Notes under the pieces: generated by a model
Seen by the model: only the letters and a program-made list of their open reading frames with translations
Databases searched by the model: none
What the model was told of the DNA's origin: nothing
Shown: positions 8,933 to 63,712 of the stretch, one piece after another
Layout of the letters: each line of letters starts with the position of its first letter
Position numbering within the stretch: the first letter of the stretch is position 1
Made by a program: the position numbers and the translations under genes
Source: Tetramitus jugosus
Taxonomy: Eukaryota > Protista > Heterolobosea
Assembly: GCA_937625935.1 (NCBI GenBank)
Contig: OW569394.1
Location: forward strand, 1 to 64,000
Direction of reading: 5' to 3'
DNA: 64,000 bases

Positions 8933-8977
8933 TCTGTGGCATAGTTGTTTATCTGTTTGTTTACACGAAAAACTCTG

Positions 8978-9064
8978 CTGTCCAATCAACATCTAATTTA
9001 TCAGTTGGCTCATCTGTCCTTTCAGCATCTAATGTATCAGTTGGCTCATCTGTCCAATCAGCAG
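8978..9064 (+). repeat. 36-bp tandem repeat, ~2.4 copies
   Basis: CTGTCC..TCA.CATCTAAT.TATCAGTTGGCTCAT units starting at 8978, 9014 and 9050. Confidence 0.85.
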
Positions 9065-9158
9065 TTTCTGGACAATATCAGTGAAGATGAACTCAACAAA
9101 CTAGTACAGACACACTGGGTGGATAGTATGATGTTTACACAAGAGGAAATAAATGATC

Positions 9159-9722
9159 TTATACTCTAATAAGTCTTCTAACTAATTCTTCGCGCGACTT
9201 CACACTCTCTACATGAACTACTACTATAGCTCTCCATACGATCAACACAACAAACAGAACAGCGTCACCAATAGCCAACCAGAGGACTGTATCGAACAAT
9301 GACTTGTGAATAGAACAGTACCAGAAGTTAGCACAGTCCAGTCTCACTATATTGTAAACTATTGCAAGTAATCCTCTAATACCAGCAGCTGCTAGTAACT
9401 CAAACATGAACAATCCATGAAGTACCTTTGTTCGTATCTCAGATATTAGATAGACCAGATACCAACCAATACCCAATCTGATAACGAAACTCATGAACAT
9501 GAACCAGATTATACTAAAGACCTTTGTTTCAGCTTGATCTTGTGCTCCAAGAGATTTGTATATTGGTATATCATCAGCAGCTAGATTTTTATTGGACCAA
9601 ACCATCTGTGTCTGCATAGCAAACTCTATTAAGAACATGATCAGACAAAGTGCGGATATGGCATAACCTATCCAACACAGTCCATCAAGAAGAATGTCTC
9701 TAACTAAAGATTTCTGACTCAT
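9159..9722 (-). CDS. Hypothetical 4-TM membrane protein
   Basis: Four hydrophobic segments, CANFWYC loop, basic tail. Confidence 0.7.
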   Translation of the reverse strand: MSQKSLVRDILLDGLCWIGYAISALCLIMFLIEFAMQTQMVWSNKNLAADDIPIYKSLGAQDQAETKVFSIIWFMFMSFVIRLGIGWYLVYLISEIRTKVLHGLFMFELLAAAGIRGLLAIVYNIVRLDCANFWYCSIHKSLFDTVLWLAIGDAVLFVVLIVWRAIVVVHVESVKSREELVRRLIRV

Positions 9723-38443: not shown

Positions 38444-41400
38444 TTAAGAAATTCTGCTGTTCCATGCCGTTCTTTCTCTTCTTTCAAAGCGAGTCGGTGT
38501 TGAAGGACTTCCAATCAGTTCAGCTTCACTGTTTGATGAGTCATTGTCATTAGCTGACGTCATATCTGTCATTTCAATATCAATTCTTGGTGATAACCTC
38601 TTTGATAACATCATGGACCTTAGTTTGTTATCATCTTCATTCTTGACCTTGTACATTCTTCTTGCAAAGCTTGAAAATTGTTCATCTTCTAATGAAGAGA
38701 CATTCTTGTCCAGAACAAACTCAAATTTCCATGCGTCTAGTTTGGCTTGTTTTTGCTTCTTTCTTCTCATGTTCAACAGTCGCCAAATCAAAACGATAGC
38801 GACAAAGAAGAACAGTGCTAAGAATAGGAGGAAAAAGAGGGAACCGGCAATGGAGGAAACAGCGACTACGACTCCCTTGGCAAACTGTTTGATGTTTGCC
38901 GCGGGCGCCACTTCCAAAAATTTCTTTGGAATTTCCGTCATGTTACATGTTGCGAATTGGCAAGTGACCCAGAGTCGATCAATGAGCACTGAGAGCATTG
39001 TTGTATCTAACGAAGCTTGTACGTGTCTTGATTTTTGTTGTGTGAGGCTTTGTCCAAGTGCAACATGTCCAGTTGATAACATTTGCTTGAATGCATAAAT
39101 TTGGTTTCTTTCAGTCAGGAATGACAATGTACAAACATTTGAGTATCCTTGCTTCAATGTCACATCGATCCGCCAAGGTTCATCAGGAATTGGATCCGAA
39201 CTGTTGGTCGAAATATTCTGTAAGGACAACCAATGGTTGAACAAGGTTACGTTCGTATTGATCATTTCAATCTCGGGTCTTACAAGTTTAAGAGTAAGAC
39301 TGTGAGGCACTCCCAGTGAAAAATTGGAACATGTTTCACTGATTTTATGCTCGAGAGGTCCCAGTTGATAAGTCGCGGATATCGTCTTGGAACCTGTGGA
39401 ATCAACACTGAGAATTGCACGTGCATTGTATGTTTCATCGTTTTCTGAAATGTATGAAAGCTCAATGAGATTACCAACTTGTCCAGGATCAATCACAAAC
39501 TCTACTGAGAGTTGTTGGTCAACTTGATCGACGAGAGCTTCCTTCGACTTTAGTATGGACCTTGGATACGAATCAGAGAGATGTGATATTATTTTGGTAA
39601 TGGAACGACTCGACGTTTCATCGAAGGATATCCATTCCGTGGATATAGCGTTCGATGCGGTTGGTTCAAAGCTATCCAGCATCGTATCTTTGTCAAATGA
39701 ATCATAGAATGACAATAAACTGGTGTCAAGATAATAGAAGAATGCGGTCGTTTCTCTTGGCGAGAAGTCTCTGTTTAACATTGAGACAGTCAGTTGTACA
39801 ACATGGTTGTTAGCGCCTTCGAAATGAGGCACTTCGCATGTTACATATCGAACAGAAACACTGGTCGAAGGAACTTCTATTGCAACTTCTCCATTGATTT
39901 CCTTCAATCGGAATGTGCAAGTGATATTCTTTTCCGTGGAGAACCATGAGCCATGAACAGTAATGATATCACCGTGCTTGGCAGTCGTAGGTGTTATTCT
40001 CTGAATCAATGGTTGGAAGTACACGAGTGACATGCCTGTTTGGGGAACGGGAGTTGAGTCTGCTACGGAGTAAATCATTATTCTAGTGAACTCAATGCTT
40101 GCCTTATCAGACGGCCACATGAATGATGGTTTGAAGCATGCATCACCAGCTAAGCCCACAGAGCTACATTTGACAAGTTGAGTGGTCACATTGACTCTCG
40201 CATTGGGATCTTCTAGTCGGATTCTAGATTTACCATCCATTGTCAAATGTTGTCCATTCAACCGAATCCAAGAATTCAAAGAGTCTGATGGAACACCAGA
40301 TGGAGAAATTAATTCAACTCTTGGTTCCCATTTACCTACAATTGAAAACTCTTTGCTTCTCAGTTCTCGAGGATAATTTGCAGGTGAAATATTGACAGGT
40401 TTGTTTCGAGGAATAATAGTGATGAGTCTCTTGAGTTTGTCATTGAGATAGATGTAGGAACTTGACTCCAACTTCACACCAGCAAAGAATCCCCCATAAA
40501 TATCAGAAACAAGTATGAGTTGATTCTCATGAACTCTTGATAAATAGTTTCTACGCATGATATGAACATCTCCATCCACGTGTAAAATTGCTTGCACATC
40601 TTGAACTGAAGGGAAGGATTCTAAAGCAACATGTTCAGAAAGTTCTCCAGATCGAGAAAGATGGAGGACAACAACAACGCCACTCGTTCTTCTTCGAGCA
40701 AACATGTACAGATCATCAGTCGTTGGGTCAATAGTAACGAATCGGTTATCGTTTTCTTCCACTAGAGGATAATACTCAGTAATAGCATGTACTCTATCAC
40801 CATCCTTGCTTGTTAAACTTAGGTGACTAACTCTAATACCTCCCATAAAGGAAACCACAATCAAAGAGTTTTGGCGAACAAATACTGCAGAGGAACTCAA
40901 TCGTGGGATACTTTGTGCAGGCGCAGGTCTCATAAGCTTCAAAGATTGAGAATCTACAGAATACAACCCTTCTTCTCTTAACAGATAGAACTGTTTTGAG
41001 TATTCACTGTATAGAGTGTGGGAAGCGTTCACTGACACGAAGCTGTACACTGATTTACCACAGTTCATATCAACCAGAGATATATTCTGATTGATTCCAT
41101 ATGGAATAGCGACCAGTAAAAATTCACCACTCGATTCACATTGGCTTCTCACTATCTCACAATCGGATCCAGAAAAGCGTGGTTGACATATGCATCTATC
41201 TGGAGCAACACACTCCCCTCGACCACTACAAACATTGGTCTGGTTTCCTAACTTACCATAGCATACTGGAATATTACATCCATCAGCCACATAACCTTTC
41301 AGGCAGTTACAATAGTTGGGCTTTTCACATAAACCATGTCCAGAACAAACATTGGATTCATTTGAGAGAGATCCGTAGCACCGAATAACATGACACTCAT

Positions 41401-44400
41401 CACCCACATAACCTGAGGAACAATCACACATATTCGGTTCTACACAAGAACCAGCTCCACTGCAAACTGAAGGATCTGAAGCAGGGATATCAAAACAGAT
41501 TGGAACAGAGCAATTACTTCCAGTGTACTGGTTCGTACAAGAGCATACATCGGGAGCAGTACAATTTCCATTACCGTAACATACTCCCTGAGCATCTTGA
41601 CTGATGCCAAAACAAATATTTAACTCACATTGGCTCCCTGTTTTGCCACTGAAACAGGAGCATGAATCGGGAGTAACACAGCCACCAAATCCATTACATA
41701 CGCTCCTGTTGTTTCCAGCAATACCAAAACATATTGGGATTTCACAATTCTCACCAGTAAACTCGTTCGAACATTTACATTCATCTGGTAATACACAAGC
41801 CCCGTTACCTGAACAAACTGTTGGATTGGTTTCATTCAAACCAAAGCACACATTAATTTCACATTGCACACCAATGCGGCCCGATCGACAGTCACATGAA
41901 TCAGGAGAAACACAAGTACCATTCATTGAACAAACATTCACATCAGTTGCGAGTTTTCCATAGCAAATAGGAATATCACAGTTAGGTCCTGTGTATCCAG
42001 TCTCTTCTCTACAAACACACTTGTTTGGAGCTACACACTTTCCATGACTACCACACACCAACGGATCAGATTCATTACGCGAATAACAAATATTAAGTTC
42101 ACATCTATCACCAGTTCGGCCTTCTATACAACTGCAAGTGTCCACACCAATACATGTTCCATTTGAGGAGCAAACATTAGGATCGGTTTCGTTAATTCCA
42201 AAACACATAGATAGTTGACATTCATATCCCGTTTTTCCAAATGTTCGACTACAATTGCATGTATCGGCATACACACACGTACCAACACTAGAGCAGACAT
42301 GTGGGAAGTAAGCAGCAACTCCGTAACATATTGGAATAGAACAATCTTTTCCTTCCCATCCATATGAACAGTTACATTTGTCCACAGAGTAACAAACTCC
42401 ATGTCCACTACAAACAATAGGATCAGACTCATTTCTATCATAACAAATGTTCAACTCACACGCTGGTCCAGTTCGACCCTGATCACACTGACATGTATCA
42501 GTGTACATACAGTTTCCTCGACCAGAGCACACAGCACGATAGTTGTTTCCAGCTATTCCGAAACAGACTGGTATGTTGCACTCTGTCCCGGTCCATTCAT
42601 TCCATGTACAGTTGCACTTATGAGGTGCCACACATCGTCCATGTTGATTACAAACTAACGAATCTGTTTCATTGTAGCCATAGCAAAAGTTCAACTCACA
42701 ATTGTCACCTGTTCTACCCTCGCTACATAAACAAACATCAGGTTCGTAACAAAATCCATACCGGGAACATACTGATCGATTGGTACCCCAAATACCATAA
42801 CACAAAGGAATACTACAATCTCGACTCACCCATCCATTAGTACAATTACATTTATCAGGTTTGTAACAATCACCATGAGTAGCACACACTTCAGGATCTG
42901 TTGTGTTCACTTCGAAGCAACTTGGGTAAAAACATTCCAACCCAGAGTATCCATAGTCACATTTACATGTGTCCGGAGCGACGCAATCTCCGTGGTCAGA
43001 GCAAACATTTAGAGTGTCGTTTGACAGTTTACTGTAACATATTGCGTGCTGACACTGCTTTCCAGCATAACCAACATCACAAACACATTCATGAGGAGAA
43101 CTACAAACACCATGTCCTGAACATACTGAAACATCAACATCTAGTTTTCCATAACAATCAATATACTGACAATCAGTACCATTAAAACCTGATTTACAGA
43201 TACACTGATCCGGTCGTTGACACATTCCTCGTCCATGACAAACAAAAGTTTCATTCTTCTCAAGGATTCCATTACAAACATTTTGTTCACATTCCAAACC
43301 ACCATAACCGCGAGTACAAACACAAAAGTCAACATTAATACAGTTGCCTTGTCCTAAATGAGAGTTACATGATGGTGGGACAGTCGTCAAGTTTTTGCCG
43401 TGACAAGTCAATGGAACACAATCACCTTTGGCATCAAACTTTGTCAAGCAAGTGCAATTATTGGGAGCAACACACGTTCCATTTTTACCAAAGTTGCATG
43501 ATGCAGGATTAGTAGCATTCAATCCGAAACATATTGGAGTGCTGCAATACACATCGGTATATCCAACTGAGCAATTGCATTTGTTGGGTGATAAGCAAGA
43601 ACCGTGGCCAGAGCAATCCAAGCTTGTTGATAGAACAAGATCAATAGAAGTACCAGGTGCTTGATAAATCGTTTCAATACCAGTGATTCTATCAAAGTAT
43701 CTACTGTAACACACGGGATAACTGCAGTTACCTCCAGTGTAGCCAGGGATGGGTTGAGAACTACATACACAATTCTCTGGCTCAACACAATAACCTTTTC
43801 CACTACACACTAATGGATCATTGGTATTTCTACCATGACATATTGTGTATTGACATCTATCACCATTGTATCCTGTTGTACAATTACAATTTCCTGGACC
43901 TATGCATTCTCCACGAGCAGAGCAAGCAAGTGGATTATTAGACAAGTATCCAAAGCAATTAATAAACTGACATCTGTCTCCTGACCATTTATCAGGATCA
44001 CAAATACATGTGTTCAGGTATTTGCATTCTCCACGACCAGTACACACATTTGGAGTGTCAGTCATGTTATAACCAAAACAAGATGTGAATTCGCAATTGT
44101 TTCCTGAGAAGCCAGATTTACACACACAGGTGTCTCTGGTGATACACGATCCATTTCCAGAACAAACATCAGTATCATCAGGTAACATGTTGAAGCAAGT
44201 CACTCCATTATACAGCAACATTGAATGAGACAATCCAGTTGAGAAGGATTCTGCATATCGCATGGTGAACTCACTACCGACAATGGCAGGTAACACTCGA
44301 TCAACATTGGAAAAGTCTCCCAATTGACCAAATGAGTTTGTACCCCAAGCAACCACTTCGCCATCGTCAGTCAGTGCAAATGAAGTGCCATTTCCACTCG

Positions 44401-47400
44401 AGCTAATACTCACAATATTGTAACCCAAGAGTGCTTCCAATCTTGTTGGTAGGCACCGATCAATAGTGGAGTTAATACCTAATTGACCCAGACTGTTGGC
44501 TCCCCAGCACCAAACTTGTCTTTTCAGAGTGAGGGCACAGCTGAAATATTCACCACCAGACACTTGAACAACAATTTCAGATTCTAATCCTGCTACTTTA
44601 ACGGGTACCAAGGATTTTACTGAGGAATGCCCTTGTCCCAGTTGACACCTTGCGTCATCACCCCAACCATATAAAGAACCATCGACTGTAGTTGCCAGTG
44701 AATGATAAGCACCAGCAAACACTGTCGCAGCATTTTTAATGCCAAATATACTTAGTACACGAATTGGAAGACCACCTGACTTGATTGAATCTTGTGTTCC
44801 ATCACCCAGTTGCCCCAGTCCGTTTTGCCCCCACGAGTAGACTGAACCACTGGCACTTAGGCCCAAACAGTGGACTCTACCGCATGAAACAAAAGACATC
44901 TTTGTCGAATTGAGGGGTACTACTAAAACTGGAGTTTGTGATGAACTGATTTGTTGTCCTATTCCGAGCTGGCCTTGTTGGTTATTACCCCAGCTGTACA
45001 ATGAACCTTCAGGAGTTGTTACAATGACCGAAGAGTATCCTACTGCAATGTTGGATGCAATAAGGTTCTTCTTGGAGAACTCAGTCAACACCAAGTTCGT
45101 CTTACTGATCAGTGTGTTGTCTCCTAATTGTCCTAGAGAGTTTTCTCCTACGGAATACATTCGACCATCACCACGAAGAATGATCGAGAATTCTTGACCT
45201 GCACCAACATATTGAACAGGAATGGTATTCAGGCTAGTCGATTTGATAATTTTGTTTGTACTCTGTGTGGTTCCTCGAACTAATTCACCTTTGGATCCTT
45301 TTCCAGTTCCAAAAAGAAAGCCCATTGTAACTCCATCACAGCTGCTTCCCTTGTGGTTCGGATGACAAACACAAGTGTTATTTGGAATACAAACACCATG
45401 ACCCGAGCAAACTGCTGGATCAGTGTTGAGGATACCATTACAAGACACTCCACTACAGTCACTCAACAAGAATTGATCTCTACACACACAGTTATCATCA
45501 CTCACACATTGTCCTCTTCCAGAACAGGAATTCTCATCATCTGCTAAAAATCCGTAGCATGTCGTACCGTTGTACAAAAATATAGTATGTTCGAATGAAG
45601 GAGCAATGTGATTAATAAATCGATGAGAATACTTGTTCACTACTGGTACTGGGAGCGCTTCCATACTTGAAATTCCACCATTTCCCAACTGACCAACATT
45701 GTTGATACCCCAAGAAAGAGATGATCCATTTGATTTTAGGACAAACACATAGTTTCGTCCAGCAAATATTGATTTTGAATCTTGTATTCTCTCGTCATAG
45801 AGTTGTACAGGATATCTTCTACGCTGGATATCAGTTTGATTGTCTCCTATTTGCCCTCGTGATGCCCCTCCCCAAGCAAATATTGTTGCATCAGCAAAGA
45901 TCACATAGGTGTTCTCCTCGGAGCCACCAATAGAAATGGGTGTCTTACCCTTGAATTGAGAGTTCAAGAGAGGAGTGGGTGAGTATCTGTTGAACACTAC
46001 ACCGTCTCCCAACTGACTATAGGAATTTGAGCCCCATACATACAAAACTCCATAAGGACCAATGCCAATTACGTGATTCCATCCAGAAGCCAGTTTCGAA
46101 ATTACAATTTGATCTATTACACCAACTCCCACTTGCAAGGGTGTGGATGAGAGCTGATTATCACCATTTCCTAATTGACCAGCATTATTTTGCCCCCAAG
46201 CAAATATGGTTCCATCGTCGATAAGAACTGTCGTGTGAGCTTCTCCACACACTGCTTGAACCACTTTTTTACCCTGAAGAGCTCCCGATATGAGAACTGG
46301 CTCATGTTTGTCAGCAAATGTTGAGTCACTGTTGCCTAGCTGGCCTCGATAGTTGTACCCCCAAGTATAAACTTGTCCGTTAGAATCCACAATGACAGTA
46401 TGAGCGACACCATTACATCCTGTGACTGCCTTAACGCCACTCAGACCCAAAGGTGCTCTAGGTAATAATCTTGTTATAGTTGTTCCGTCTCCCAATTGGC
46501 CTCTATCGTTCAGACCCCACCCAAACACCTCACCCGTTTCAGTAATTGCAATGGAATAATCCTTACCAGAAGAGATATGAGAAACAACCTTGCCAAATAG
46601 TTCGCCTCCAACAGCCACTGGATATGTCTGAGGCAAATTATAACCGTTTCCGAGTTGGCCCAACGCTCCTTTACCCAAGCTGAAGGCATATCCATTTACT
46701 ACTTGACTACAATCATCTCCAATATATCCGGAACGACAAACACACGAATCGGCTGCTAGGCACGCTCCTCGGCCAGAACAAACTCGAGTATCATTAGGCG
46801 GATAACCGAAGCAATAGAATAAGCTGCAGTCTGGCGCATTGTACTCTGGAGCACACTCGCAATGATCGTGGGCGGTGCAATTACCTTTGGTAGAACATAC
46901 AGTTGGATCGTCAGCAAATATGCCGAAACATACAGTACCATTGAAGAGATACAAAGAGAAATGATCACCAGAGACAGCAGCAGTGGGATAAATGTTTGGA
47001 AATTGTTTCTGGACTTGAACAACGTGATCAGTTCTTGTCTCATTGAAATATCCATTTCCTAACTGACCAAAAAAGTTGTCTGCCCAGGAGAATATGGTTT
47101 GGTTATCGGAGAGGGCATGAACGAATTGATCACCAGCACTAATAGACTGTATATTCACATCACTTGGTAAAATTGTTACCAATACAGGATTTTTCCTATC
47201 TATTGTTGTTTTATCACCCAGTTGACCAACGTTGTTCGCGCCCCAAGCATAAATTGAATTGTCAAATGCGATGACCATCGAAAAGGAGGCTCCAGCAGTG
47301 ATTTGCGATACGGGTTTTCCGTACAACAAACCCGGAACTTGGACTGGTAAGAACTTGTTGTTGTTTGTGCTATCTCCAAGCTGGCCTCTGTCATTCATTC

Positions 47401-50400
47401 CCCAACTATAAACTGTTCCATCAGATCCTAATGCCAAAGAATGATATTTTCCGGCTGTAATTTGGACAATTCTTTTGTTTGCCAACAATGCTCCCACTTT
47501 TCTAGGAGTGTACTTGAGAATGAAAGAGTTGTCTCCTAATTCGCCATGAAGATTATACCCCCACGTGTAAACAGACCCATTGAAGGAGAGTGCCATGCTG
47601 TGATAACCTCCACATGCGATAGCGACAATATCTTCGTACAACAAATCGCCTGTAACTCGAGTGGGTGTTAGCTGCAACGAGATTGGTGAATTGATTCCTA
47701 TTTGGCCAAATTCATTTGAGCCCCATGCAAAGACAGTTCCATTCCGGTCTAATGCCATGGCATGTTCCACTCCGCCACACAAACCGACAATGTCTGAGTC
47801 AGATAGGATATGTTGATTGATTCCTTTGGAGAGAGTTGATCCGTCTCCCAATTGACCATGCGAGTTATGACCCCAAGAGAAAACACGTCCGCTCGCGGTC
47901 TTAATGAGAGAGTACTCGTATCCGGGAGTGATTAAATTCACTGCTGAAGAAATGAGAGTGGCTCTTTCGACTGTTGGTCTGAACTCAATTCCTCTACTAC
48001 CTAATTGAGCAAAGGAGTCTTCTCCAGACGAGTACAGGTAGCCATAAGATTCCACTTCACAGTTTACGCCTGAAAAGCCCTGGAAACAAACACACGTGTC
48101 GAGAGAAACGCACCTACCCCCACCAGAGCATACATCGAGTGATGTTGCAGCAACACCATGACATTGAGCAATACTACAATCCTTTCCTCCGTAAGCAGGA
48201 GGGCATTCACAATGGTCCAAAGCTGTACAATTACCTCTCCAAGAACATACCGTTGGATCATCAAACACAATTCCAAAACACGATATTCCAGAGTACAAAA
48301 ACAGGGAATGAGTAGTTCCAGAAGAAACGCTCGTGATATGTCTTTCAGGTTTTGTGTTACCTACAGCCATAGAGTAGTTACGGCTTGTAAATGTGTAGTC
48401 TCCCAATTGGCCATAGGAATTTTCACCCCAACCATAGGCTGTTCCGTTTGATGCAAGAGCAATAACAAAGTTAGAGTTCTTTCCTACCGAAATGGATGTT
48501 ATTGGATGATCAACATTCAATAATACAATCTGAGGAAGAGATCGATAGTTGACAAGAGTATCCCATTCTCCTAGTTGAGCGTTGGGCAGATTAGCGCCCC
48601 ACGAAAACAGAGAGCCATTTCTCAAGAGAGCATAAGAACTCTCGATTCCAGCAGCAATCGATAGGACCGGTTCAGTACCAAAAAGATTTTGGGATTCAAC
48701 TTTGTATGGCAAACTCCTGCTGAAGATTGTACCATCTCCCAATTGACCCTTGTTGTTTCTACCCCATGAGTAAACAGACCCATCCGCATTCAGGGCAAGA
48801 GTATGGTAGTTGCCCGCTGATACCATTACAATATTTTTGATATTCAATATTCCTCCCACTAACGTAGGAATAGGAACAATACCTCCACTTGTACCGGAGC
48901 CTAACTCGCCAAATGAATTACTACCCCATGCGAAAACTCTTCCTGATGACGATATAGCGAGCGAGTGGGTGTATCCACATGCTATATCCACAATGATTTC
49001 GGGACCAAATTTTTCAGTAATATTAACTGGAATCCATGATGATTCTGTTGATCCAGTACCCAATTGACCGTGAGTGTTATTTCCCCAGGAGTATATATTG
49101 TGGTTCGAGTCAACAGCTAAGGTGAAGTGAACGCAAGCAACAAGTCGAATGATCGATCGCCCTTGAAATAGCTCTACTGGATAGTATCTGGTATAGGTAG
49201 TGTTGTCACCGAGTTGACCTTGGTCATTATTTCCAAAAGTTAGCACTCCTTCTTTCAAACTCACCACAAAAGAGCTTCCTCCTCCTGCTGTGACATAATT
49301 TACTGTTCGACCACTGATTAAACTTGATTGTCTTGGATAACTTTGAGAAATAAAGAATCCATCTCCCAATTGAGAGCTGGTATCATCGCCAGAAGCATAT
49401 AAAAATTGAAGATCGGTGCCATTACACATTGAACCCGTATAACCCGAATCGCAGATGCATGTATCAGTATACAAGCACATTCCATTACCAGAACATACAC
49501 GAGGATTATCGGCAGGAAGTCCATAACAACTTGCAATTGAGCAATTTGAGCCACTATAATCATCAATACAAAGACAGAAATCGTGAGCTATGCAGATACC
49601 TCTGAATGAACAAACTGTTGGATCATCTGCCAATACACCATCACAGAAAGTACCATTATACACCATTAATGAGTGAGAAAATCCTGTTGCAAAAGATACG
49701 ATATGACTACTTTGATAAGGCATTCGATAGGTTTCAGACGGGTACGGGATGATCGAAAGTGGATCATCCAGCGCTAAGTGCTTGTTATTGTTGTTTCCCC
49801 AAGCATAGCTTATACCATCATCCGTTGTCACTTGAACAACATCTGACCAAATACTTGCAGACAACACTGTGACATTATAAAGTCCAATCACTTTCACAGG
49901 AGTGGTTGACCATGGAATCGTTGAGTTAATTCCGAGTTGGCCGAATGAATTATCACCCCAAGCATACAACGATCCATCTTCGGTGATGGCATATGCTGTT
50001 TGCTTTCCAGCTGCAATTTTCTTGACTCCCAATCCTTTGAGTGATCCCAACACACGTCTTGCATGGAAAGTATCAGTGCTGATTTTGGTTCCATCAGCGA
50101 CTTGTCCTTTTGAGTTATCACCCCAGACATACACAACACCTCGATCAGTCAGTGCCATTGAGTAGCGATCACCAGCTGCAATCGAGATTACATTTTCGAA
50201 TCCTAATAATTCTCCTTGGGTAGCATCAGATTGAAGTAGTTTCGGAGCAGACAAGGCGGTATTTGCTCCCAATTGCTTATAGTTATTTTGTCCCCAGCCA
50301 TAGACGCTGCCGTTAGATGTTCTGACAAGAGTGTGTTGCCCACCACAAACTAATTCCACAACTTTTCCTCCATTGAAATTATCTGACGGAGCAGGAAGAA

Positions 50401-53400
50401 GCACTGGAAGAGGATTACCACTTCCCCAGATGAAAATCTCGTTCTTGTCTGAAACTGCGGTCGCATAAGAAGTGCTAACACAAGAGTGGACGATGCGAGT
50501 GGTACTCAATATTCGGCGTGGACGATTCGTGTGTGCTGTTGTTCCATCTCCAAGCAAGCTTATATTTCCTTTTCCCCAGGAGTACAACTCTCCATCTATT
50601 GTCAAAGCTAAAGAGTTGTCATAGCCTGAAGAGATATGCTTGATATAATTTCCATGCGTGAGTGGATATGAAGTCTGCACAGGTTCTAAGCGATTCTTAT
50701 AATAATCATCACCTAATTGTCCCCAACCGTTGTTTCCTGAAGTATACAACAATCCATAGACAGGCATCTCACACTGCGAGCCTGTATGCTCCCAATGACA
50801 AGAACATGAGTCCCAAGCAATACATGAGCCTTTTCCATTACAAACGTTACTACTGGTCGATTTGAGTCCAAAACAAATATTGATGCTACAATCTTGAGAC
50901 ACGTAGCCATCGTCACATTGACATGAATCGGTAGCTATGCACCGACCTCGACCAGAACAAACGTTATCATCATCAGCGAGTACACCAAAGCAATAAGTAT
51001 TGTTGTAAAGAACCAAGGAGTGGGCTAGTCCGCCGGCAAAACCCACGATGGATCTGGATTGACCTTCGAATGAAGCCATCAAATGGGGATATCGGATGAG
51101 TGTGCTCGATGTATTCAATCCTAAATGTTGATGAATGTTGTTACCCCACGCATACGCACCGTAAGGTGTTGAAACTTGAACTGTGTCCAAGTATGCACTT
51201 GCTGATACCCCGGTGATGTTGTGAATTTCAATTACTCTCACAGGCGTAGTCGAAAATGAGAGTATTGTTGAGTTGATTCCTAGCTGACCGAATGTGTTAT
51301 CACCCCAAGCATACAAAAGCCCATCTTCTGTGATTGCATAAGCGGTTTGTTTGCCAGCAGCAATGCTCTTTACCGAATAGTGTTTGAGTATGCCAGTTAC
51401 TCGTCGAGCAGCAAACTTATCTGTACTACTTGTCGTTCCATCACCAGCCTGACCTTTGGAGTTATCACCCCAAACATAGACAGCACCTCGATCAGTAAGT
51501 GCCATTGAGTATCCTTCACCAGCTGCAATCGAAATCACATTTTCAAAACTAAGAAATTCTCCCTTGTTGGGATCCGCTTGAATTTGCACGATCTTAGTTA
51601 ATGTCGTACCGTAAACTAACTTATCTCCCAGTTGATTAACGTTGTTGCTTCCCCAGCCATAAACTGTACCGTTTGACACTCTGAGCAAAGCATGTTGAGT
51701 TCCACAAGCCAATTCAACAACTTGTCCTCCACCATAGTTATCTGCTGGAGCGGGCAATACAACAGGAACATTGCTGTTGCTTCCCCAAAGATAGATTGCA
51801 TTTCCTTCTGTCAGAGCCAGTGCAAATGTTGAACCTGAACATGTATGAACGACTGGAGGTAACGTGCTCATAATCCTTGCAGGAATGCTTCGTTGGACAA
51901 GTGATCCGTCACCAAGAAGGCCGCGAAACGCGCTCACAGATTTACCGTGTCCCCATGAATACAACTCTCCTTCAACTGTAAGAGCGAAGGAATTGTAAGA
52001 GCTGGCCGATAACCTTTTCACATATTTTCCATTTGACAGAGGATACCATGCTTGAACTGGCGATAATCTATTACTAGAATGATCATCACCCAGTTGGCCA
52101 AACGAGTTGGTACCCATTGCGAATGTTAGGCCATAAACCGAGTGTTCGCATTGTGATCCACTGTAGTAGGGATCACATGCGCAAGTATCAAGTGCGACAC
52201 AATATCCACGGTGGGAACAAACAGGCAAGCTACTTTGGTTGTGTCCAAAACAGACATTGATACTGCAATCTTCACCCAAATAACCATCATCACATGAACA
52301 AAGATTTGGACCAACACATGAACCTCTCATTGAGCAAACATTTTCGTCATCAGACAGTATTCCGAAACAGTAAGCTCCATGATAAATAAACAAGGAGTGT
52401 CCACTACCAGAAGCGAAATTGACAATATATCTTGTTTGGTTTTCAAATCTGAATGTCTCAAGAGGATAAGGAATGATACTTTGAGTTGTAATTAGTGCTA
52501 AATGCTTGTTAGTATTGTTTCCCCAAGCGAAACTAAGTCCATCATCCGTTGTCACTTGAACAACATCTGACCAAATACTTGCAGACAACACCGTAATATT
52601 TTGAATATCGGTTACTCTGACAGGAGCAGTAGCCATGGTAATTGTTGAGTTAATTCCGAGTTGGCCGAATGAATTATCACCCCAAGCATACAACGATCCA
52701 TCTTCGGTGATGGCATATGCTGTTTGCTTTCCAGCTGCAATTTTCTTGACTCCCAATCCTTTGAGTGATCCCAACACACGTCTTGCATGGAAAGTATCAG
52801 TGCTGATTTTGGTTCCATCAGCGACTTGTCCTTTTGAGTTATCACCCCAGACATACACAACACCTCGATCAGTCAGTGCCATTGAGTAGCGATCACCAGC
52901 TGCAATCGAGATTACATTTTCGAATCCTAATAATTCTCCTTTGCCTGGATCGCCTTGGATTCTACGTATGATGCTTGACGCACCACCATACACAGCTATT
53001 TCACCCAGTTGATTCGCACTATTGCTTCCCCAGCCATAGACAGTACCGTTTGACACTCTGAGCAAAGCATGTTGAGTTCCACAAGCCAATTCAACAACTT
53101 GTCCTCCACCATAGTTATCCGCTGGAGCGGGCAATTCAACAGGAACATTGCTGTTGCTTCCCCAACGATAGATTATATTTCCTTCTGTCAGAGCCAGTGC
53201 AAATGTTGATCCTGCGCATGTATGAATCACTGGGGGCAAGGTGCTCATAATTCTCACAGGTCTATTTCTTTGGGTGAGTGTTCCATCTCCGAGCAGTCCA
53301 CTAGATGCTGTAAAACTTCCTCGTCCCCAGGAATACAACTCGCCGTCAATAGTCAAGGCCAAAGAATTCTCAGCTCCTGTCGCGATATGCTTAATATGTA

Positions 53401-56400
53401 TTCCATGTGTTAATGGATATGCTGTTTGTGTTGGTGGAACGACACGAGACGGTTCGTCAGTACTGTCACCTAGCTGGCCAAAATTGTTCATACCCACCGA
53501 GTACAAGAGACCATAAGACAATACCTCACAGTGTTGGCCAGAGTAGAATAATTCGCATGCACATGAATCAAGGGCAACACAATGTCCGTGTTGAGAACAA
53601 ACGAGCGAATCTGTTGAATTCTTGCCAAAACAGACATTGATACTGCAATCTTCACCCAAATAACCATCATCACAAGAGCAGAGATTTGGACCAACACATG
53701 AACCTCTCATTGAGCAAACATTTTCATCATCAGACAGTATTCCGAAGCAATATGAGCCATTGTAGACAAGCAAGGAGTGACTCACACCAGCAGAAACATC
53801 AACAACCCTGCTGACTTGACCTGGACGAACTGATGTAGGGACAGGATATCGTATCGGAGAAGTGCTTGTCACCAAAGATAGGTGCTGTTGAGCGTTATTT
53901 CCCCAAGCATAACTGAGGCCATCATCCGTTGTCACTTGAACAACATCCGACCAAATACTTGCAGACAACACTGTGACATTATAAAGTCCAATCACTTTCA
54001 CAGGAGTGGTTGACCATAGAATCGTTGAGTTAATTCCGAGTTGGCCGAATGAATTATCACCCCAAGCATACAACGACCCATCTTCGGTGATGGCATATGC
54101 TGCTTGTTTTCCAGCTGCAATTTTCTTTACCGTCAAGTTCAATAGACTACCACCCACTCGTTTTGCGTGAGTGGTCGAGAATGTTGTACCATCCCCCACT
54201 TGGCCTTGCGAGTTATCACCCCAGATGTACACTTGACCGAGTTCGGTCAGGACCATTGAAAAGCTGTCACCCGCAGCACTTGCTATAATCATCGAGTTGG
54301 TACCAAGTGCTTCGCCGAAGAGAGAAGATCTTTGTTGTGCAGTAATAAGTGTGAGAGGTGAGCCATACAAATACCTATCACCTAGTTGGTTGTTTGTGTT
54401 TGTTCCCCAACCATACACTCGACCATTCGATGTTCTGAACAGAGCATGTTGAGTTCCACAAGCCAATTCAACAACTTGTCCTCCACCATAGTTATCTGCT
54501 GGAGCTGCCAATACAACAGGAACATTGCTGTTGCTTCCCCAAAGATAGATTGCATTTCCTTCTGTCAGAGCCAGTGCAAATGTTGATCCTGCACATGTGT
54601 GAATCACTGGGGGCAAGGTGCTCATAATTCTCACAGGTCTATTTCTTTGGGTGAGTGTTCCATCTCCGAGCAGTCCACTAGATGCTGTAAAACTTCCTCT
54701 TCCCCAGGAATACAACTCTCCTTCAACGGACAAGGCAAACGAGTTGAAGGCTCCTGAGGATGAATATTTAACATACTTCCCATACGCCAAAGGGTATATC
54801 GTTTGAGTGGGGGTTAGTCGGACGGGATCATCAAGATCATCACCAAGCTGGCCCCAGTTATTCTTTCCAACAGAATATAGAAGTCCGTACACTGGAATAT
54901 CGCATTCACTGCCTGTGTAATAGTGGTGGCACGCACATGAGTTGAGATCAACACAAACACCATGACCTGAGCAAACTCCTGGATCGGTTTGATTTAGACC
55001 GAAACAAACACTAATACTACAATCATCTCCTAAATAGCCAGATGAACATGAACATTTGTCAGATGCAACACAAGCACCTCTTGAAGAACAAACATCATCA
55101 TATTCAGACAGTACTCCAAAACAGAATGTCCCATTAACCAACAATAGTGAATGCAAAGAAGAAGCCTCGGCTCCTACAATGAAGTTAGAATTAAACGGAC
55201 TAAGAACTAGAGAAGGAGCAATTGTTGCATCGTTAGTACCATCTCCTAGCTGGTAAGCAGTGTTTTCTCCAAAACCAAAAGCAGACCCATTCTTCAATGT
55301 AACAATCGCATATCGGTTCCATGTTCCTGCTGTTATTGTCGATGCATTTTCTATCAAATGGACTGGTGTTGGAAGAGTGTACTGAATAGTGTTGTTGGTA
55401 CCTAGTTGACCAACATCATTGCTACCCCAAGCAAACAGAGTACCGTCAGCAGAGATGGCATAGGACGAATAAGCACCTGCTGCAATGTTGACAATATGTG
55501 TTCTCAACAGAGTATCCTTGATCTGACGAGGATGTCTGTTACGAACAAGAGTATCATCGCCCAATTGGCCATTGCTGTTGCTTCCCCAGGTGTACACCTC
55601 CCCTCGACTGCTCAATGCCATGCTATGATGTTGACCCGCGGCTATTGCTATCACGTTGACATGAGAAAGAACACCTTTGATAGGACTCAGATCACCAACT
55701 CTCCTCGGCACTGTTTCTATCCGATTCTGTCCATAACCAACAGCTCCATACGCGTAATCATCACCAAATCCAAAAACATATCCTTCTCTTGTTAATATTA
55801 ATGTATGGACATGACCACAAGCTGCTTGCACAGGAGTTCCGCTGATACCAGAAACACTACTAGCTCCCACACTCAATAGAGAATTCCCAATTCCTAGTTG
55901 TCCTGATAGTACTCCATTAGTTGCTCCGTTCATCGTGTTGACTCCCCATGAGTAGACTTCACCAGTATTTAGAACTGCCACAGTGTGATAGGAACCACTA
56001 CACACACTCAATACTTTCTTTGTTGGTAGTAGATGGCTTGGATACAATCTATTGTTTGCTGATCCTGTTCCCAATCGATAAAAGGCACCACTTCCCCATA
56101 CAAATAGTTCTCCGAGTGTTGTAATTGCTAAAGACACATCAGGACCTGAAGAAATTTGTTGAATTTTTCTTCTACTTAATGAATCATAAGGTTTAATCCA
56201 TTCTGAAGTGGATGTCAGTTTGCCATTTCCCAGCTGACCCATGTTATTTCTACCGACGGACAGAACAGCACCAAATACATTAAGTTCGCAGAAATTTCCT
56301 GCATATCCAGCATCGCATTTGCAAGTATCATAGGCAATGCATGTTCCATGGCCAGAGCATACCTCTGGTTGAGTGTTGTTCAATTGGAAGCATGTAGTGA

Positions 56401-59400
56401 ACTCACAAGCCGGTCCAAAATAGTTCTCATCACAGTTGCAAGTATCAGTATCAGTACAATTACCTCGTGTCGAACAAGCCATGGTATCATCCATCGGATA
56501 ATCGAAACAATAGGTTGTATTGAACAGAAAAACACTAAAAATGTTTCCTGTGGCTGCTCCAACAATTTTCTTTGAGGCAAAAGGATTCACCACAGGTGTT
56601 GGCACCAGCTTAGACACAATACTTCCATCTGCTCCTTGTGAATTTGTGTTTAGTCCCCACGAATAGGCTGTACCGTCTGAAGCTGTGGCTACCACAGTAT
56701 AGAAACTGGCGCTCACGGAAACAATTTTGATTCCACTCAACGAAGACACAAGAACAGGATAAGTTAGATACGAAAGAGTGTTATTGACACCCAATTGTCC
56801 AACTGAATTAGCACCCCAAGAATATAATTCTCCATTTGCTGTTAGAGCATATGAAGAATAAGCTCCTGCAGCTACTTGAATCACAGGAAGTCCCAACAGA
56901 GTAGTGATGACCTGTAGAGGATGCACACTGCTTACCAAGGAGCTTTGTCCTAACTGACCCAAGTTGTTGGCGCCCCAGGTGTAAACCTCTCCTCTGCTTC
57001 CCAGAGCAATACTGTGAGCGTCACCCGTAGCAGCTTGGACAATGTTAATCGATGATAAAACACCCTTCCTAGGAGTGCTCGATCCGACTTGAATCGGAGT
57101 CCATCTATTACCCCCATCACCCAAACCAAGCTGTCCACTTCCTCCAATACCCCAAGAGTAAAGTCTACCAGTTGAAGAGCGAGCAATTGTGTGGGAAACA
57201 CCGCAACTGACAGCTACAATTGATAAATTCTCAAGAGTAGATATTTGTCTGGGTATTGTACTATAGTAGAACGTTCCTGACAGACCCAACACACCAACAA
57301 TAGGTGGATAGTAGTCGCTTGGGTTACCATTTGTTGGTACCAAACAAGGACATGTAGTTTCTGTACAAAACAGATTGACATCGTAGTTACACGAGATACG
57401 AGCATTTTGCGTGTTGAATCCCCATGAAAACACTTTGCCATCGGAGGTAACAGCAACAGCATGTTGCTGCCCTGCACAAGCACTAATGATCGAATATTCT
57501 GGTAGAATGTTCGCTGGTCTAATAGAATATAGAGTGGTTCCATTCGCTAAAATGTTGTACAACCTCTTTCCCCAAGAATATAACTTGTTTTTTCTTGATA
57601 TTGCGAGAGTAAAGTCGATACCCGAGTCAACATGCATCACGTGTTCTCCATAAGACAGTGGAAAAGATGTGCGAGTAAAATCAGATCGATCGAGGTAGTA
57701 ATCGTCCCCCAGTTGACCGAGGGTATTACTTCCAATCGTAAATGTTTCTCCATACAGCCAACCGCTGCAGTCATCACCTGTGAATCCGGATTCACATGAA
57801 CATGCATTAAACGAAACGCACACTCCATTTCCGGAACACACTGAAGGATCAGTTGAATTCGTTCCAAAACACGATGTGGAGCTACAATCGATTCCATAGT
57901 AACCTTCTTGGCACACGCAAGTGTCAGTAGCAATACACTCACCCCGCCAGGAACATACATAGGGATCATCTGAAAACAAACCAAAACAATAGGTTCCATT
58001 GAGCAATACGATTGAGTGCTGTAATCCAGAAGAGATAGCAACGATTGATCTGTTTGTGTATGTTTGAGTAACTGGATTCACATACAGCTTTCTTGTAGGT
58101 TGTGGACTAATAACTTTGCCAGTCCCACCATTTAGTAATTGATAAACATTTCCCAAGCCCCATCCGTATCCATCTCCATTATTGTCTCCCACAATTGCAT
58201 ATTCTCCAAAAGTACTCGCAGACAAGGTTGCGATCGATGTTAAATTTAGATCAACAGGAGTCAATGTTTGGCTGATGGTTGAACCAATACCCAACTCATA
58301 ATTGTTATTGTCTCCCCAGGAGAAAACCCTTCCTTCGGCACTCATCGCGTAGGATGATTCCATGCTTGCTGATATCGCTTTAAATGGCACTCTATACATT
58401 GGACCTTTGGATAGCAACTTTGGAAATCGACTCAGATTTGGATTTCTTGAGAGACCGTCACCTATTTGACCTCTACTGTTACTTCCCCAAACAAATACCT
58501 CTCCCTTATCACTGAGTGCCATACTGTGAAATGGTCCAGCAGTGATCGAAATGATTTTCGCATCACTCAGGGTACCTCCAGTTGCCAAAGAATGTGCAAC
58601 TCGCACAGGAAGGAACGCTCGAACACCGGAACCATAATTACCATTTCCCAGTTGACCAAATTCGTTATCACCCCATGCCCATAACTCACCACTCTCCATC
58701 AAAACCAAGCAATGATATTTTCCACATGCAACAGACACGGCAGTACCTGTCATTCCGGTAACCTCTCTAGGTGTGGTGCGCAAGTACACATTTGATCCTT
58801 GACCTAAGTATCCAACGATCGTTGGAGGGGAGCACGTAGTATATGACGAGGGACAACACTGAAGTTCTCCACAAAACCACGTGTAGGTATAGCAAGTTTT
58901 AGTATTGCACCTTGTGTAAGTGGAGGTAGATGCTCCGTTGAGAGTATCAGCACCCCATGAATACACTTTTCCATCGGTTGAAACTGCTGCGGCATGATAC
59001 TGAGCTGCTGAGGCTGAGATGAAGGTTGTTCCTGCAGGAGCATTCACAAGTACAGGTCTCGCTTCCTGTTGATTGTTCCCGTTTCCTAAATTATAATAAG
59101 GATTCCAACCCCATGAATAGAGCTTACCATCCAGAGCAATGGCCAACGAAAAATGATAGCCACTTGAAATGTATTGTACGTAGGTGTCTGTCGAAAGGGG
59201 AACAGAAGTAATTCCCAGGAGAGCACGAGTAGCCAATAACCCATCACCCAAAGAACCATAACTATTTACACCAGCTGTAAAAGCGTATCCGAACACTCGA
59301 TTCTCACACTTCTCTCCTGAATACACACCGTTCGTGCAAACACAAGTATTGAGAGCAATACAATGTCCTTTTGCGGAGCAAACACTGGGATCGCTTGAAT

Positions 59401-62400
59401 TGACCCCGAAACATGTTGTTAGTTCACACTCGGCACCAAAGTATCCGGCATCACAAGTACAAACATCATTTGCTGTGCATGTTCCTCTCCAGGTGCAAAC
59501 TAGTGGATCATCGGCCAAAACACCAAAACATCGCGTACCGTTTAGCAACAAGAGTGAATGTGTCGCTCCAGCACCTACACCAACCAAAAAAGTGGTTGGA
59601 AAATGTTTGTTCACTTTTTGGGGTACGGGCTGTAATCTTGTAGTGATAGTCTCGTCGCCCAATTGTGAATAACTATTTATGCCCCAAGAATATCCGACAC
59701 CTGTATCTGACAATGCAGTAACCCAGTTTGTCGATCTGCTCGTGAATATTTCTTTCACGAAAACACCTTCAAGGTTCTTAACTAACTTGGGTACCATTCG
59801 GACTGCTCCCACAGCCAACGAGGAATCTCCCAACAATCCATCTGCGTTGCTACCCCAAGAGTAAACTTCTCCATTTTTGGAGACTGCAAAAGAGCTGTAC
59901 ATACTTGCAGCGATATGCGTAATCTGATTTGGAAGACCTCGCGCCAGTAAAGTAGGAACTGATTTGCTTGTAAGAGTCATGTCACCCAGTTGACCTACGT
60001 TATTCAGTCCCCAAGAATATACTTGCCCAGAATCACCCAACGCAAGTGCGTGTCCATATCCAGCAGCCACCTTTGCGATATTGGTCAATCCTAATACCTT
60101 CTGTACTGAAAAAACATCAGCCACTATTGCAGTACCCAACTGGCCGAACGTTCCATGACCAACAGAGTAAACCGAACCGACATTGGTCAAAAACAAAGTA
60201 AAGTAGGTTCCACACACGAGAGATTTAGGAACTTCCCCCTGTGCAAATCCAGACACAACTGAAGGCGTAGTACCGACTGCAGATGTTCCTGTGACATAGT
60301 AGCCCCAACCTCTCACAGTACCATCTTGTATAATGGCCATGACTCTGTCATAACCAGCACAACAATCCAGAACATTATTCAATACGTTGATAGGTTTAAT
60401 TCTGTTCGTTGTTGACCCATCTCCAACTTGTCCTTTCGCATTATACCCCCAAGTGTACACTTTTCCATCTTGAGTGAGGGCAACTGAGAAGACGTCTCCG
60501 GCATCCACTCTCTTCAACACTTGTTTAGTTAACAGCCCTTGAAGCAACACAGCTTCGCTCGCATATCCAATTGAGGGAACATCCTCACTCGCTAGCTGAC
60601 CATACTCGTGACGTCCGATTCCATAGCCTATACCACTCACAACATTCTCACAATTCGAACCAGAATAACCCATATCGCATAAGCATAAATCTACCCCTGT
60701 ACAAGCTCCTCGTCCAGAACACACATTAGATGCGTTGTTCAGCACACCATGACAGTGAAATGAGTCACAATTCAAACCGGTGACTCCACTTTCACATGAA
60801 CACTGATCAAAGCTCATACAATTTCCGTGATAGGAACAAACTGAAGGATCATCAGCCAACACCCCGAAACATGAGAGTGAATTGTTGTAAATAACAAGGG
60901 TGTGATAACAACCGACCGACAAGCCTACGACCTGACGATCAGGAAAGAATAAGTTATACTTAATGGGTCGAATTTGCTGTGCTAGCGTTCCATCTCCGAG
61001 TTGGCCATTCGAATTACTACCCCATACGTATGCTGTGGACTGGGAAATGACACCCATCGAAGTGGCTGCTGCAGGGCATATGACATTAGATAGTCTGCGA
61101 GAAGTTTTATCGGCCAGTGGCGCTGCAACTGATTGATAATTGAGAGCGTACGACACCGCAGCCGAATTAATTCCCAATTGTCCCTCCACATTTCTACCGG
61201 CACCATACAGTATGCCATCTGCAATGACATAGGAGGATTGAGCAGATCCCGAAATTTCTGTCACCTTTTTGCCTGCTAACGGAGAAGTGGTCATAGGAAT
61301 GGCCTTCCATCTATCAGTGTAAGAGCCATCTCCCAGTTGACCATTGCCATTATGTCCCCAACGATACAATGTCCCATCGTCTGCGATGGCCATTGAAAAA
61401 TAAACTCCTGCTGCGATCGCTGCCACCTTTCTCTTGTAAACCATTCCTGTCAACAAAATTGTCTGGGGAAGGTATCTTGCATTGGTTGTTCCATCACCCA
61501 GCTGGCCCTGACCATTATAGCCCCAAGCTAACAGTGTTCCATTTCTCAGCAATGCCATGGCGTGAAAATAACCGCAAGCGACCGACGTGACATTTTCGCC
61601 CGAGAGAACTCCTTCTATTCTAAAAGGTGACGAGAAATGAGTAGTGTTGCCTGTTCCCAGTTGACCGTTAGAATTATCACCAAACGACCAGACAGCCCCC
61701 GTGTCATCAACAACCATGGAATATGCATATCCTGCACACATCGATCTCACATTTCCAAACGGTCCAGAAATCAAAACTGGACTCTGCTTATCAATGAGAG
61801 TACCATCTCCCAATTGCCCTCTGCTGTTTGCTCCGACTCCGTACAAGGTACCAGTGGACAGCAATACTAATGAAAATGATGTTCCAGATACGACAAAGTG
61901 AACAGATTGGCCGGAAAAAGACAAAGAAGGGACAGGAATCATTCTTTTCACTCCAGTTTTACCTAGATTATCTGCAAGTTGCCCCATACTATTATCTCCT
62001 GCACCATAGAGAAGTCCTTCATCCTTTGCATCGCAAGTCAGACCTGAATACCCTTGATCACACAAGCAAGTATCAATAGTCAAGCATTGCCCGTGACCAG
62101 AACATGTGGTTGGATTGGATGATTCTATTCCATAGCAGAAAGGCAAACTGCAATCACTACCCGTAAATCCGTCATTGCAGGAACAGATATCATTACCAGT
62201 ACAGTTTCCGTGACCAGAACACACGAGAGGATCAGACATGAAAATTGCAAAGCAAATGATCGAATCAACAAGATACAGATTATGATTAAAACCGACTCCT
62301 GTTTGCGTAATAGTACCCCAAACAACGGGAGATGTAATATTTTGCATCACAGTGTGAGTTCCTGTGACACCAATGCCAAACTGGCCTGTAAGATCTTGTC

Positions 62401-63712
62401 CCCAACCCCAAACTTGGTTGTTTTGTTCAACCACCTGAACACTCTCTGCCAAAAAACTAGAATAGATAGTCTGGATCACCTTTCCTGTAGCTATTGTCGC
62501 TTCGACAGGAACCATAGAAAGAGAGGAAATTGCAGTATTTCCTAGCTGACCGAGTGTATTGTCGCCCCAAGACATAACAATACCACTTTTCAGAACGGCA
62601 AATGAGGAGCTTTTTAAAGCTGCTATGGAAATAACCACATCACTTTGTGCGACAAAAAAAGGAACAGCGAACACCCCACCATCGCCGACACCCACCTGAC
62701 CTCTGTCTGAAGTACCCCATGCGTAAACACAACCCTTACTATCCAAAACGATATTATGTTTCTCTCCTGGTGCAATGTCAATCCATCGTATGACCTCTCC
62801 GTTCTCATCTGACTCGCTGATGCTTGTTGGTATTGGAACAGCCGAGCCAATTGCCTTACCATTACCAAGCTGACCATGCATATTAGCCCCCCAAACAAAC
62901 ATTGTTTTAGAAGAAGTTATAGCAGCTGAATGATATTTTCCACATGCAACTTTGACAACCTTTTGGAATGCGGCTGGTCCAGCTACCTTAACGGGGACTA
63001 ATGAGTTTGCTGTGGTTAATAGGCGACCTAACCATCCTCCGGCATTTGGGTCCACTGTCGTGTCTATATTGGTTCCCCAAGAATACACATTGCCATCTGA
63101 ATCTGCAGCTAACCCATGATAAAAACAAGCTGCAATAGACACAATTCTCTTCCCTTGCAAATCACCTCTCAATATAGAGGGAATCCTTTCATAAGTCGAA
63201 GAAAAACCCAATCCCAATTGAGCATAATTGTTCTTTCCCCATGCAAAGACTTCGCCTTTAGTGTTGAGAGCCAAAGAGAACCTGTCACCTGCTGAAACAG
63301 CCTCCACATGCATCAAACCCAAGTAATCACCAACTCTAATTTTCGTCAAACTATTCGACTGTGGTGTTAAGTCTCCTAGCTGTAAAAACGAATTATCACC
63401 AGCTGAAAATACCAGACCTCGGGTTCTTTGAGCACAATCTGGAAGCTCATAGTTATCATGACAAAAGCAAGTATCATTTGCGATACAAATGCCACGAGAT
63501 GAACATACAGAAGCATCAGTAGCGTCGATACCAGAGCACAATGTAGCTGAACTCACTTCTGAAAGAATGAATAAGCACCATCTTCTAGTTCATCATACAT
63601 CAATCAAAATCAACATACCTTTTGTACCTCCCCACAATAAGAGAAGAAATAGCAACAACACAACCGTCCTTGCTGTTATGAGTTTCTCGCGTACCCCTTC
63701 TTTGGGCTTCAT
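38444..63712 (-). CDS. Giant (~8400 aa) type I membrane protein: 14 RCC1/BLIP-II propellers separated by EGF pairs, 25-EGF stalk, IPT-like region, TM
   Basis: 25-kb open frame; signal-peptide exon 63712-63619 joined in frame by GT-AG intron 63618-63559; WGxNxxGQLG repeats; TM ~38770-38870. Confidence 0.93.

Follow-up and report, generated by a model that had tools for sequence, protein, structure and literature searches.

A spliced and transcribed giant gene of Tetramitus jugosus encodes a predicted single-pass membrane protein with 14 RCC1 propellers

The window, the whole stretch of 64,000 nucleotides of Tetramitus jugosus DNA that we analyzed (assembly GCA_937625935.1, contig OW569394.1, positions 1 to 64,000), is gene-dense eukaryotic DNA that is read with the standard genetic code. 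Positions 1-876 are a (CCCAAA)n telomere; a passage in PMC3622300 names TTTGGG as a candidate telomere repeat of Naegleria gruberi, in keeping with Heterolobosea. The GC content of the window is about 41%, above the 35-37% listed for Naegleria in part of PMC9928731. On the minus strand, a frame of 8,381 codons without stops extends over 38444-63589. The gene model and the ORF listing resolve this region into two exons: exon 1 (63619..63712, 94 nt), which holds the start codon (ATG at 63712) and a signal-peptide-like segment, and exon 2 (38444..63558, 25.1 kb), which is open until the stop codon. They are separated by a 60-nt GT-AG intron (63559..63618). The product is 8,402 amino acids long, in agreement with the earlier note, which had read about 8400 residues from the letters and placed nearly all of them in one 25-kb exon. 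On the plus strand, at 26346..30869, lies a paralogue without RCC1 units, in which a weak fibrinogen-like head is followed by an EGF array, the same membrane-proximal module as in the giant protein and a transmembrane segment (23% identity over 543 aa, E 2e-17).

RNA contigs of two soil metatranscriptomes, which belong to different studies, lack the intron: 60 nt are skipped in run X4 and 63 nt in run X6. The longer skip is in frame and fits either a deletion of 3 nt in the strain or the use of another acceptor site 3 nt further downstream. In contigs of runs X1 and X9 the intron is retained, and the intron of another neighboring gene is likewise spliced in RNA contigs. Part of the 3' 9.6 kb of the giant gene was present in 20 public runs, seven of which hold at least half of its words, and contigs were mapped to the gene for six of the 20; the share present in X18-X20 was small. 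These runs were picked because the gene is present in them, and they are evidence of transcription, not of expression level or of one continuous transcript. Between 44001 and 64000, all 30 bins were covered in each of the four runs mapped there. The paralogue at 26.3-30.9 kb served as a control for DNA contamination; its depth did not rise above about 2 in X6 and X7 and was 0 in X4, and in the same RNA libraries every bin of the giant gene was covered. Among the 30 pieces listed per table, the longest RNA piece inside the ORF was 2,538 nt, and the gap totals of the gapped pieces inside the ORF were divisible by three in 11 of 11 cases; three pieces that extend upstream of the ORF had gap totals of 37, 40 and 43. 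Some indels of 1-2 nt within the ORF appeared among the rows listed, mostly as compensating pairs; at 51256-51258, however, only one member of such a pair was among the rows listed, for X4 and for X6. The giant gene is real, spliced and transcribed.

The encoded protein starts with the signal-peptide-like segment and an EGF module (63434..63541, assigned by cysteine spacing), followed by 14 RCC1 propellers with EGF pairs between them, 25 further EGF modules, several membrane-proximal domains, a transmembrane helix and a tail. The propeller array, U1-U14, occupies 44198..63433 with a period of 448-513 aa, and is supported by Pfam, alignment and a structural model. Judged by the spacing of their cysteines, there are 52 EGF modules (1 + 13 pairs + 25), which match the Pfam families EGF_2, EGF_Teneurin and EGF_TEN. 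The 14 blocks that separate the EGF modules are 385-451 aa long, and each contains seven RCC1 blades with Pfam RCC1 or WD40_RLD matches (PF00415, PF25390). Alignment of 56 units shows seven motif pairs per unit and blades of about 52 aa; the GQLG loop is missing from blade 3 in U7-U10, and each propeller carries 2-8 Cys. Hydropathy exceeds 2.0 in two places only, residues 11-29 and 8271-8289. The first was called signal-peptide-like from hydropathy only, and an independent relative, P0001, has a similar hydrophobic N-terminus immediately before its first EGF module. The second is the single transmembrane helix (38777..38845, hydropathy 3.15), which precedes a predicted cytoplasmic tail of 110 aa (38447..38776). 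The protein is thus predicted to be a single-pass type I membrane protein. The earlier note had described the signal peptide, the 14 propellers, the repeating unit of one propeller plus two EGF modules, the total of about 52 EGF modules, the single transmembrane segment and the tail of about 110 aa, and all of these stand. Its stalk survives in part: the 25 consecutive EGF_2- or teneurin-like modules are there (41159..44197, Pfam and cysteine spacing), but what lies between them and the transmembrane helix, approximately 770 aa, is a predicted folded, multi-domain region.

Repeat misassembly had been named at the outset as a result that would undo the whole description. Unit-to-unit amino acid identity is 25-37%, except among U7-U10 (49424..54901), where it is 57-68%, and the longest exact repeat in the gene is 298 nt. 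An assembly artefact, or several genes merged through misassembly, could draw on the facts that no single contig spans the whole gene in the runs examined and that no contig bridging the U7/U8 junction is among the pieces listed. However, units as divergent as these cannot be collapsed or duplicated copies, the depth of X1 is even over U7-U10, and X1 contigs bridge U6/U7, U8/U9 and U9/U10 with zero differences. P0001, an independent ORF of 7,087 aa, has the same domain order as the window protein. Repeat misassembly is therefore unlikely given the divergence of the units, the shortness of the longest exact repeat, the even depth and the bridged junctions; we regard it as largely refuted, and give an artefact of any of these kinds a very small chance.

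An AlphaFold2 model of U12-U13, built from a 13-row alignment from the window and covering two of the 14 units, contains two all-beta propellers (mean pLDDT 77, pTM 0.53). These superimpose on the RCC1-like domains of HERC1, HERC2 and RPGR with rmsd 2.1-2.7 A, the match to the HERC2 RLD having rmsd 2.1 A and TMt 0.91. With seven RCC1 blades per domain and a seven-bladed fold in the model, the units have the hallmarks of the RLD superfamily. In every unit one blade is split, its third strand opening the unit and its first two strands closing it, so the chain would enter and leave at the same hairpin. We infer from this strand order that the propellers hang laterally off the EGF chain with one loop face outward; the EGF linkers are of low confidence (pLDDT 50-65), and the orientation of the domains is not fixed by the model.

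A model of the C-terminal 768 aa (pLDDT 82, pTM 0.63) predicts a further propeller, two IPT-like domains and a beta-sandwich. The propeller (40325..41119) is not of the RCC1 type and, by its strand count alone, probably has six blades; its full-length Foldseek matches to propeller proteins are weak. Two predicted IPT/TIG (Ig-like) domains follow at 39728..40318, the first recognized from the strand pattern of the model and the second from Pfam TIG (E 9e-7). The predicted ConA-like or L-type-lectin-like beta-sandwich (38957..39643) was identified by structural alignment: VIA-align gives Z 16.8-15.2 and rmsd 2.9-3.5 A over 185-191 aligned residues, at 7-11% identity, to a phage CBM, a galectin-like protein, a legume-lectin-like domain of Entamoeba and ERGIC-53. 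A lectin-like fold predicted in this way is no proof of function. As to a possible YWTD kinship of the membrane-proximal propeller, the C-terminal model, searched as a whole, gave a weak match to the ROS1 leg region (TM 0.23). The C-terminal 905 aa had no usable match in the ESM Atlas, and a profile of them found nothing useful among solved sequences, its two matches at E <= 1 being a ciliary dynein chain and a sodium-channel subunit. Among 1.84 billion representatives, the membrane-proximal region was found in 29 proteins at E <= 0.001.

Few of the listed matches combine RCC1 and EGF modules. Among the 120 listed matches of 4,609-14,667 aa (573 scored, 417 passed) they are P0001-P0004, and among the 120 listed shorter matches (7,992 scored, 2,505 passed) they are P0170, P0199 and P0251, the last of which additionally has an RGS domain. 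Most of the other listed matches are multi-RCC1 proteins of 2,000-7,800 aa that lack EGF; those that carry names are bacterial. In P0001 there are 11 propellers and a stalk of 25 EGFs, and its C-terminal module is that of the window protein, with 35% identity over 924 columns; P0002-P0004 have at least 8-10 units and appear to be N-terminally truncated. The relatives that belong to the family, P0001-P0004, P0170 and P0199, share a repeated unit made of one propeller and two EGF modules, a stalk of 23-31 EGF modules and a transmembrane segment. The window protein has this same layout, with its C-terminal transmembrane helix, and with 14 units is the longest member found. The paralogue shares the EGF stalk and the C-terminal module but has another head, and the EGF stalk and membrane-proximal base thus appear to be a chassis that takes exchangeable heads. 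In openly accessible literature on extracellular, protist, amoeba and Naegleria RCC1/EGF proteins we found no description of an RCC1-EGF array protein. The main text of PMC9928731 mentions RCC1 once (as UVR8-like) and EGF never.

A quick, unrooted tree of 84 propellers, without rows for intracellular eukaryotic RCC1, was used to compare the units; the segments obtained from P0006, P0207 and P0149 were too short for inclusion. Each of the 14 window units falls with the P0001 unit at the same position (SH-aLRT 97-100), U7-U10 pair jointly with unit 7 of P0001, and P0002-P0004 and P0199 also contain orthologues of the last three to four units. A branch with SH-aLRT 92 separates the 56 family propellers from 25 presumed bacterial propellers, and the three propellers of P0251 lie outside the family on long branches. 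Because every unit pairs with the P0001 unit at its own position, the array is old and ordered, with distinct units and one younger fourfold expansion, U7-U10. Which two units share an identical DNA tract changes from place to place (298 nt in U8/U10, 100 nt in U7/U8, 78 nt in U7/U9), a pattern suggestive of segmental gene conversion among these four units. The earlier note had called the array multivalent. Since the propellers are mostly only 25-37% identical and their positions are kept in P0001, it is more likely to be multi-specific than to be 14 copies of one site, and the claim is refined to that extent.

We defined a loop face of the propeller as 35 variable columns around the G-x-x-H and G-x-N-x-x-GQLG motifs. 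In UVR8, BLIP-II and RCC1 the same propeller face binds partners, and some loop-face columns align with the Trp-Arg of the GWRHT motif of UVR8. By this analogy and by sequence, the loop face is the presumed binding face. Over 11 orthologous unit pairs (U8-U10 left out), identity was 23% on the loop face (n=384), 39% in the opposite turns, 39% in the linker loops and 71% in the core. A set of 215 columns of similar variability among paralogues had a mean identity of 34%, and none of 10,000 random column sets was as low as the loop face. By sequence comparison, the loop face is the most divergent surface class. Tyr, Phe and Trp make up 16.5% of it (n=486) and 6.1% of the other loops (n=1137). 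Such high divergence could reflect relaxed constraint, though the aromatic enrichment argues against this. Among U7-U10, the loop face had a dN/dS of 0.37, the linker loops one of 0.36 and the rest one of 0.23; dS is near saturation. None of these values exceeds 1, and a search for positive selection on the loop face among these units found none. A role in recognition or adhesion fits this variable, aromatic-rich face.

The same variability could instead serve as an identity code, if propellers of neighboring cells bound each other face to face in self or kin recognition. UVR8 dimerizes face to face; strain-level variation is present along with the variable face, and no more than about 40-64 kb separates the gene from the telomere. 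Allorecognition loci, however, usually show strong allelic diversification, whereas the strain differences here look modest (21 of 36 listed substitutions are synonymous, in a small best-supported subset of more than 900) and dN/dS is below 1, so we consider this explanation unlikely. It is also rather improbable that the protein is a structural component of a glycocalyx or coat, that is, a long and glycosylated spacer in which the propellers have no specific ligands and serve as bulk or as cross-links of the coat. The 112 N-glycosylation sequons in the 8,402 aa would suit such a spacer, as would a length that may reach about 130-155 nm with every EGF module, at 2.5-3 nm each, extended. The position-specific conservation of units, the aromatic enrichment on one face and the conserved tail favor specific binding over a coat.

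The reading we hold with moderate confidence, a little better than even, is that of a predicted single-pass surface receptor, whose propellers likely bind different extracellular targets, such as the surfaces of prey or particles, through their variable faces and whose tail would relay capture. The type I layout, the disulfide-rich EGF modules and the sequons speak in favor of it. The 25-EGF stalk would lift the propeller array away from the membrane, and the propellers would project sideways off the EGF chain with the loop face outward. Each propeller may have a separate target, be it on prey, on particles or on the substrate, several contacts together giving avidity, and the short conserved tail may couple capture to uptake or the cytoskeleton. 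The repertoire would change through whole-unit duplication and segmental exchange, as in U7-U10. A bolder form, which we put forward tentatively, is an independently built receptor of megalin scale: a germline array of 14 antibody-like sites with hypervariable aromatic faces, carried on an EGF backbone and renewed by duplication and gene conversion, that would tell bacterial prey or kin apart.

Most plausibly, and by analogy, the protein works like LRP1 or megalin without being a member of the LDL-receptor/LRP family. The portions of PMC11325810 and bioRxiv 10.1101/2025.06.10.658798 that describe LRP1 and LRP2 present giant type I receptors with beta-propeller and EGF repeats, membrane-proximal EGF modules and a short tail. 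The filament proposed in the earlier note is thus a putative shape: LRP1, which has a comparable propeller-EGF layout, is modeled as a bent dimer in part of the latter source (bioRxiv 10.1101/2025.06.10.658798). LRP propellers, eight in number, are of the YWTD type, whereas the 14 repeated propellers here are seven-bladed RCC1 propellers, and the window protein has no YWTD match in Pfam. The complement-type (LDLa) ligand repeats of LRP are absent by Pfam and by pattern search, as are the NPxY and YxxL motifs of its tail. Membership is ruled out by the lack of complement-type repeats, of a YWTD array and of NPxY. The window protein is about twice as long as LRP1.

The tail bears on a further alternative. 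One stretch of it is nearly identical in P0121, P0129 and P0130, a shorter A-R/S-K/R segment occurs in most of nine aligned tails, and an acidic Ser-Glu-x-x-Leu-Leu/Ile segment (Leu-Ile in the window protein) is found in the window protein, P0121 and P0130, three of the nine. A pattern search of the 110 aa found no NPxY, YxxPhi, YxxL or canonical [DE]xxxL[LI] motif. A megalin-like receptor that scavenges or sorts soluble macromolecules, and that travels through endosomes instead of gripping cells, would account for the propeller-EGF repeats, the membrane-proximal EGF run and the short tail, which parallel LRP1 as described in part of PMC11325810, and also for the acidic segment and for the resemblance in fold of the juxtamembrane domain to ERGIC-53/VIP36. 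But the dileucine-like segment is non-canonical and missing from six of the nine tails, a common fold with ERGIC-53/VIP36 proves no function, and the complement-type repeats, NPxY and YxxL of such receptors are lacking. We therefore think this explanation improbable, and retain the receptor for prey or particle surfaces as the preferred one.

Other families with similar parts were also compared. The earlier note held that RCC1 propellers are mostly intracellular in eukaryotes, which is overstated, given the extracellular propeller of the plant receptor-like kinase CRINKLY4 and the many bacterial multi-RCC1 giants. In the sections of PMC4617170 that treat it, CRINKLY4 has an extracellular seven-repeat propeller, a distant relative of RCC1, with a single transmembrane segment and presumed ligand binding, and CRINKLY4/ACR4 combines one propeller of approximately 39-aa Cys-bearing crinkly repeats with a TNFR domain and a kinase. 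The window protein instead has 14 canonical RCC1 propellers, EGF spacers and no kinase. The crinkly-repeat pattern C(X~10)CWG, as given in that part of PMC4617170, was sought in the 8,402 aa, which contain one CWG; with no TNFR match in Pfam, no kinase and a tail of 110 aa, membership in the CRINKLY4 family is ruled out. The bacterial giants carry several propellers in chains of 2,000-7,800 aa, together with cadherin-like, Ig, FN3 or choice-of-anchor domains and, unlike the window protein, without EGF spacers among the matches listed. BLIP-II matches the window propellers with E 2e-12. Teneurins share EGF modules of the EGF_Teneurin and EGF_TEN families; they are type II proteins with NHL, a YD-shell and a C-terminal toxin-like domain. 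The C-terminal transmembrane helix and the absence of Pfam matches to NHL, YD-shell and toxin-like domains rule out membership. A role like that of RCC1 proper, in the nucleus and in Ran exchange, is unlikely, as the predicted signal peptide and transmembrane helix put the propellers outside the cytosol.

The size and layout of the protein are unusual, yet it is built from known parts, and extracellular RCC1 is itself not new. Recognition of prey and surfaces by phagotrophic protists is poorly understood at the level of receptors. The gene provides a concrete, transcribed and modular candidate for such recognition, in which each unit of approximately 450 aa could be expressed and screened for ligands on its own. 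If the favored reading is true, the protein would represent convergence on the LRP/megalin design with a different propeller, and eukaryotes would be using the RCC1 fold as a variable scaffold for extracellular binding in more than CRINKLY4 with its one propeller.

RNA contigs that span the only intron of the giant gene (63555-63619) revealed two splice forms, of 60 nt and 63 nt, both of which keep the reading frame, consistent with the use of tandem acceptors. On the 5' side, contigs from the soil RNA runs X4 and X6 extend 2.4-3.1 kb upstream beyond the end of the window (63996 onward), and this extension may be either an extended 5' region or the joined-on transcript of a neighbour. In the encoded protein, the propeller units U4 and U5 (~56300-59300) carry Cys-rich loop insertions in blade 3, with 8 and 6 cysteines per propeller, respectively. 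In contrast, blade 3 of U7-U10, the younger fourfold expansion, is without the GQLG loop.

At its other end the window opens with a telomeric (CCCAAA)n array of ~146 copies (1-876). Near the telomere lies an ORF of 480 aa (9758-11200, minus strand), the first 215 aa of which resemble viral prohead proteases. This likeness comes from ESM Atlas feature matches (0.94-0.95; five of the six rows viral) that include Peptidase_S77, which makes up 92% of one cluster, and S78, with shares of 11% and 24%; searches of Pfam and PHROGs gave no match. The C-terminal half is low-complexity and scaffold-like, and orphan ORFs occupy 5834-9722 of the same region. Together, these ORFs may be what is left of an endogenous protist virus of the HK97 type.

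The plus strand at 16967-18451 encodes, in one frame, an NADPH-oxidase/ferric-reductase-type protein with a C-terminal SH3 domain, to our knowledge an unusual fusion. A small secreted-type gene with introns (24860-26100, plus strand) consists of two similar tandem units. Because 575 nt of it (25468-26044) are skipped in runs X3, X6 and X7, the data suggest that other strains or alleles have just one of the units.

A paralogue of the giant gene (26346-30869, plus strand) combines a head that weakly resembles fibrinogen (its Pfam match, E 6e-4, fell below the cut-off), an EGF array and the giant protein's membrane-proximal module, and had scarcely any coverage in three soil RNA runs. In a further relative, the EukProt protein P0251 (2,787 aa), modules of the RCC1 and EGF types are accompanied by several hydrophobic stretches, and an RGS domain lies at the C-terminus. 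Judged from this domain content, P0251 would couple an ectodomain related to that of the giant protein directly to G-protein regulation.
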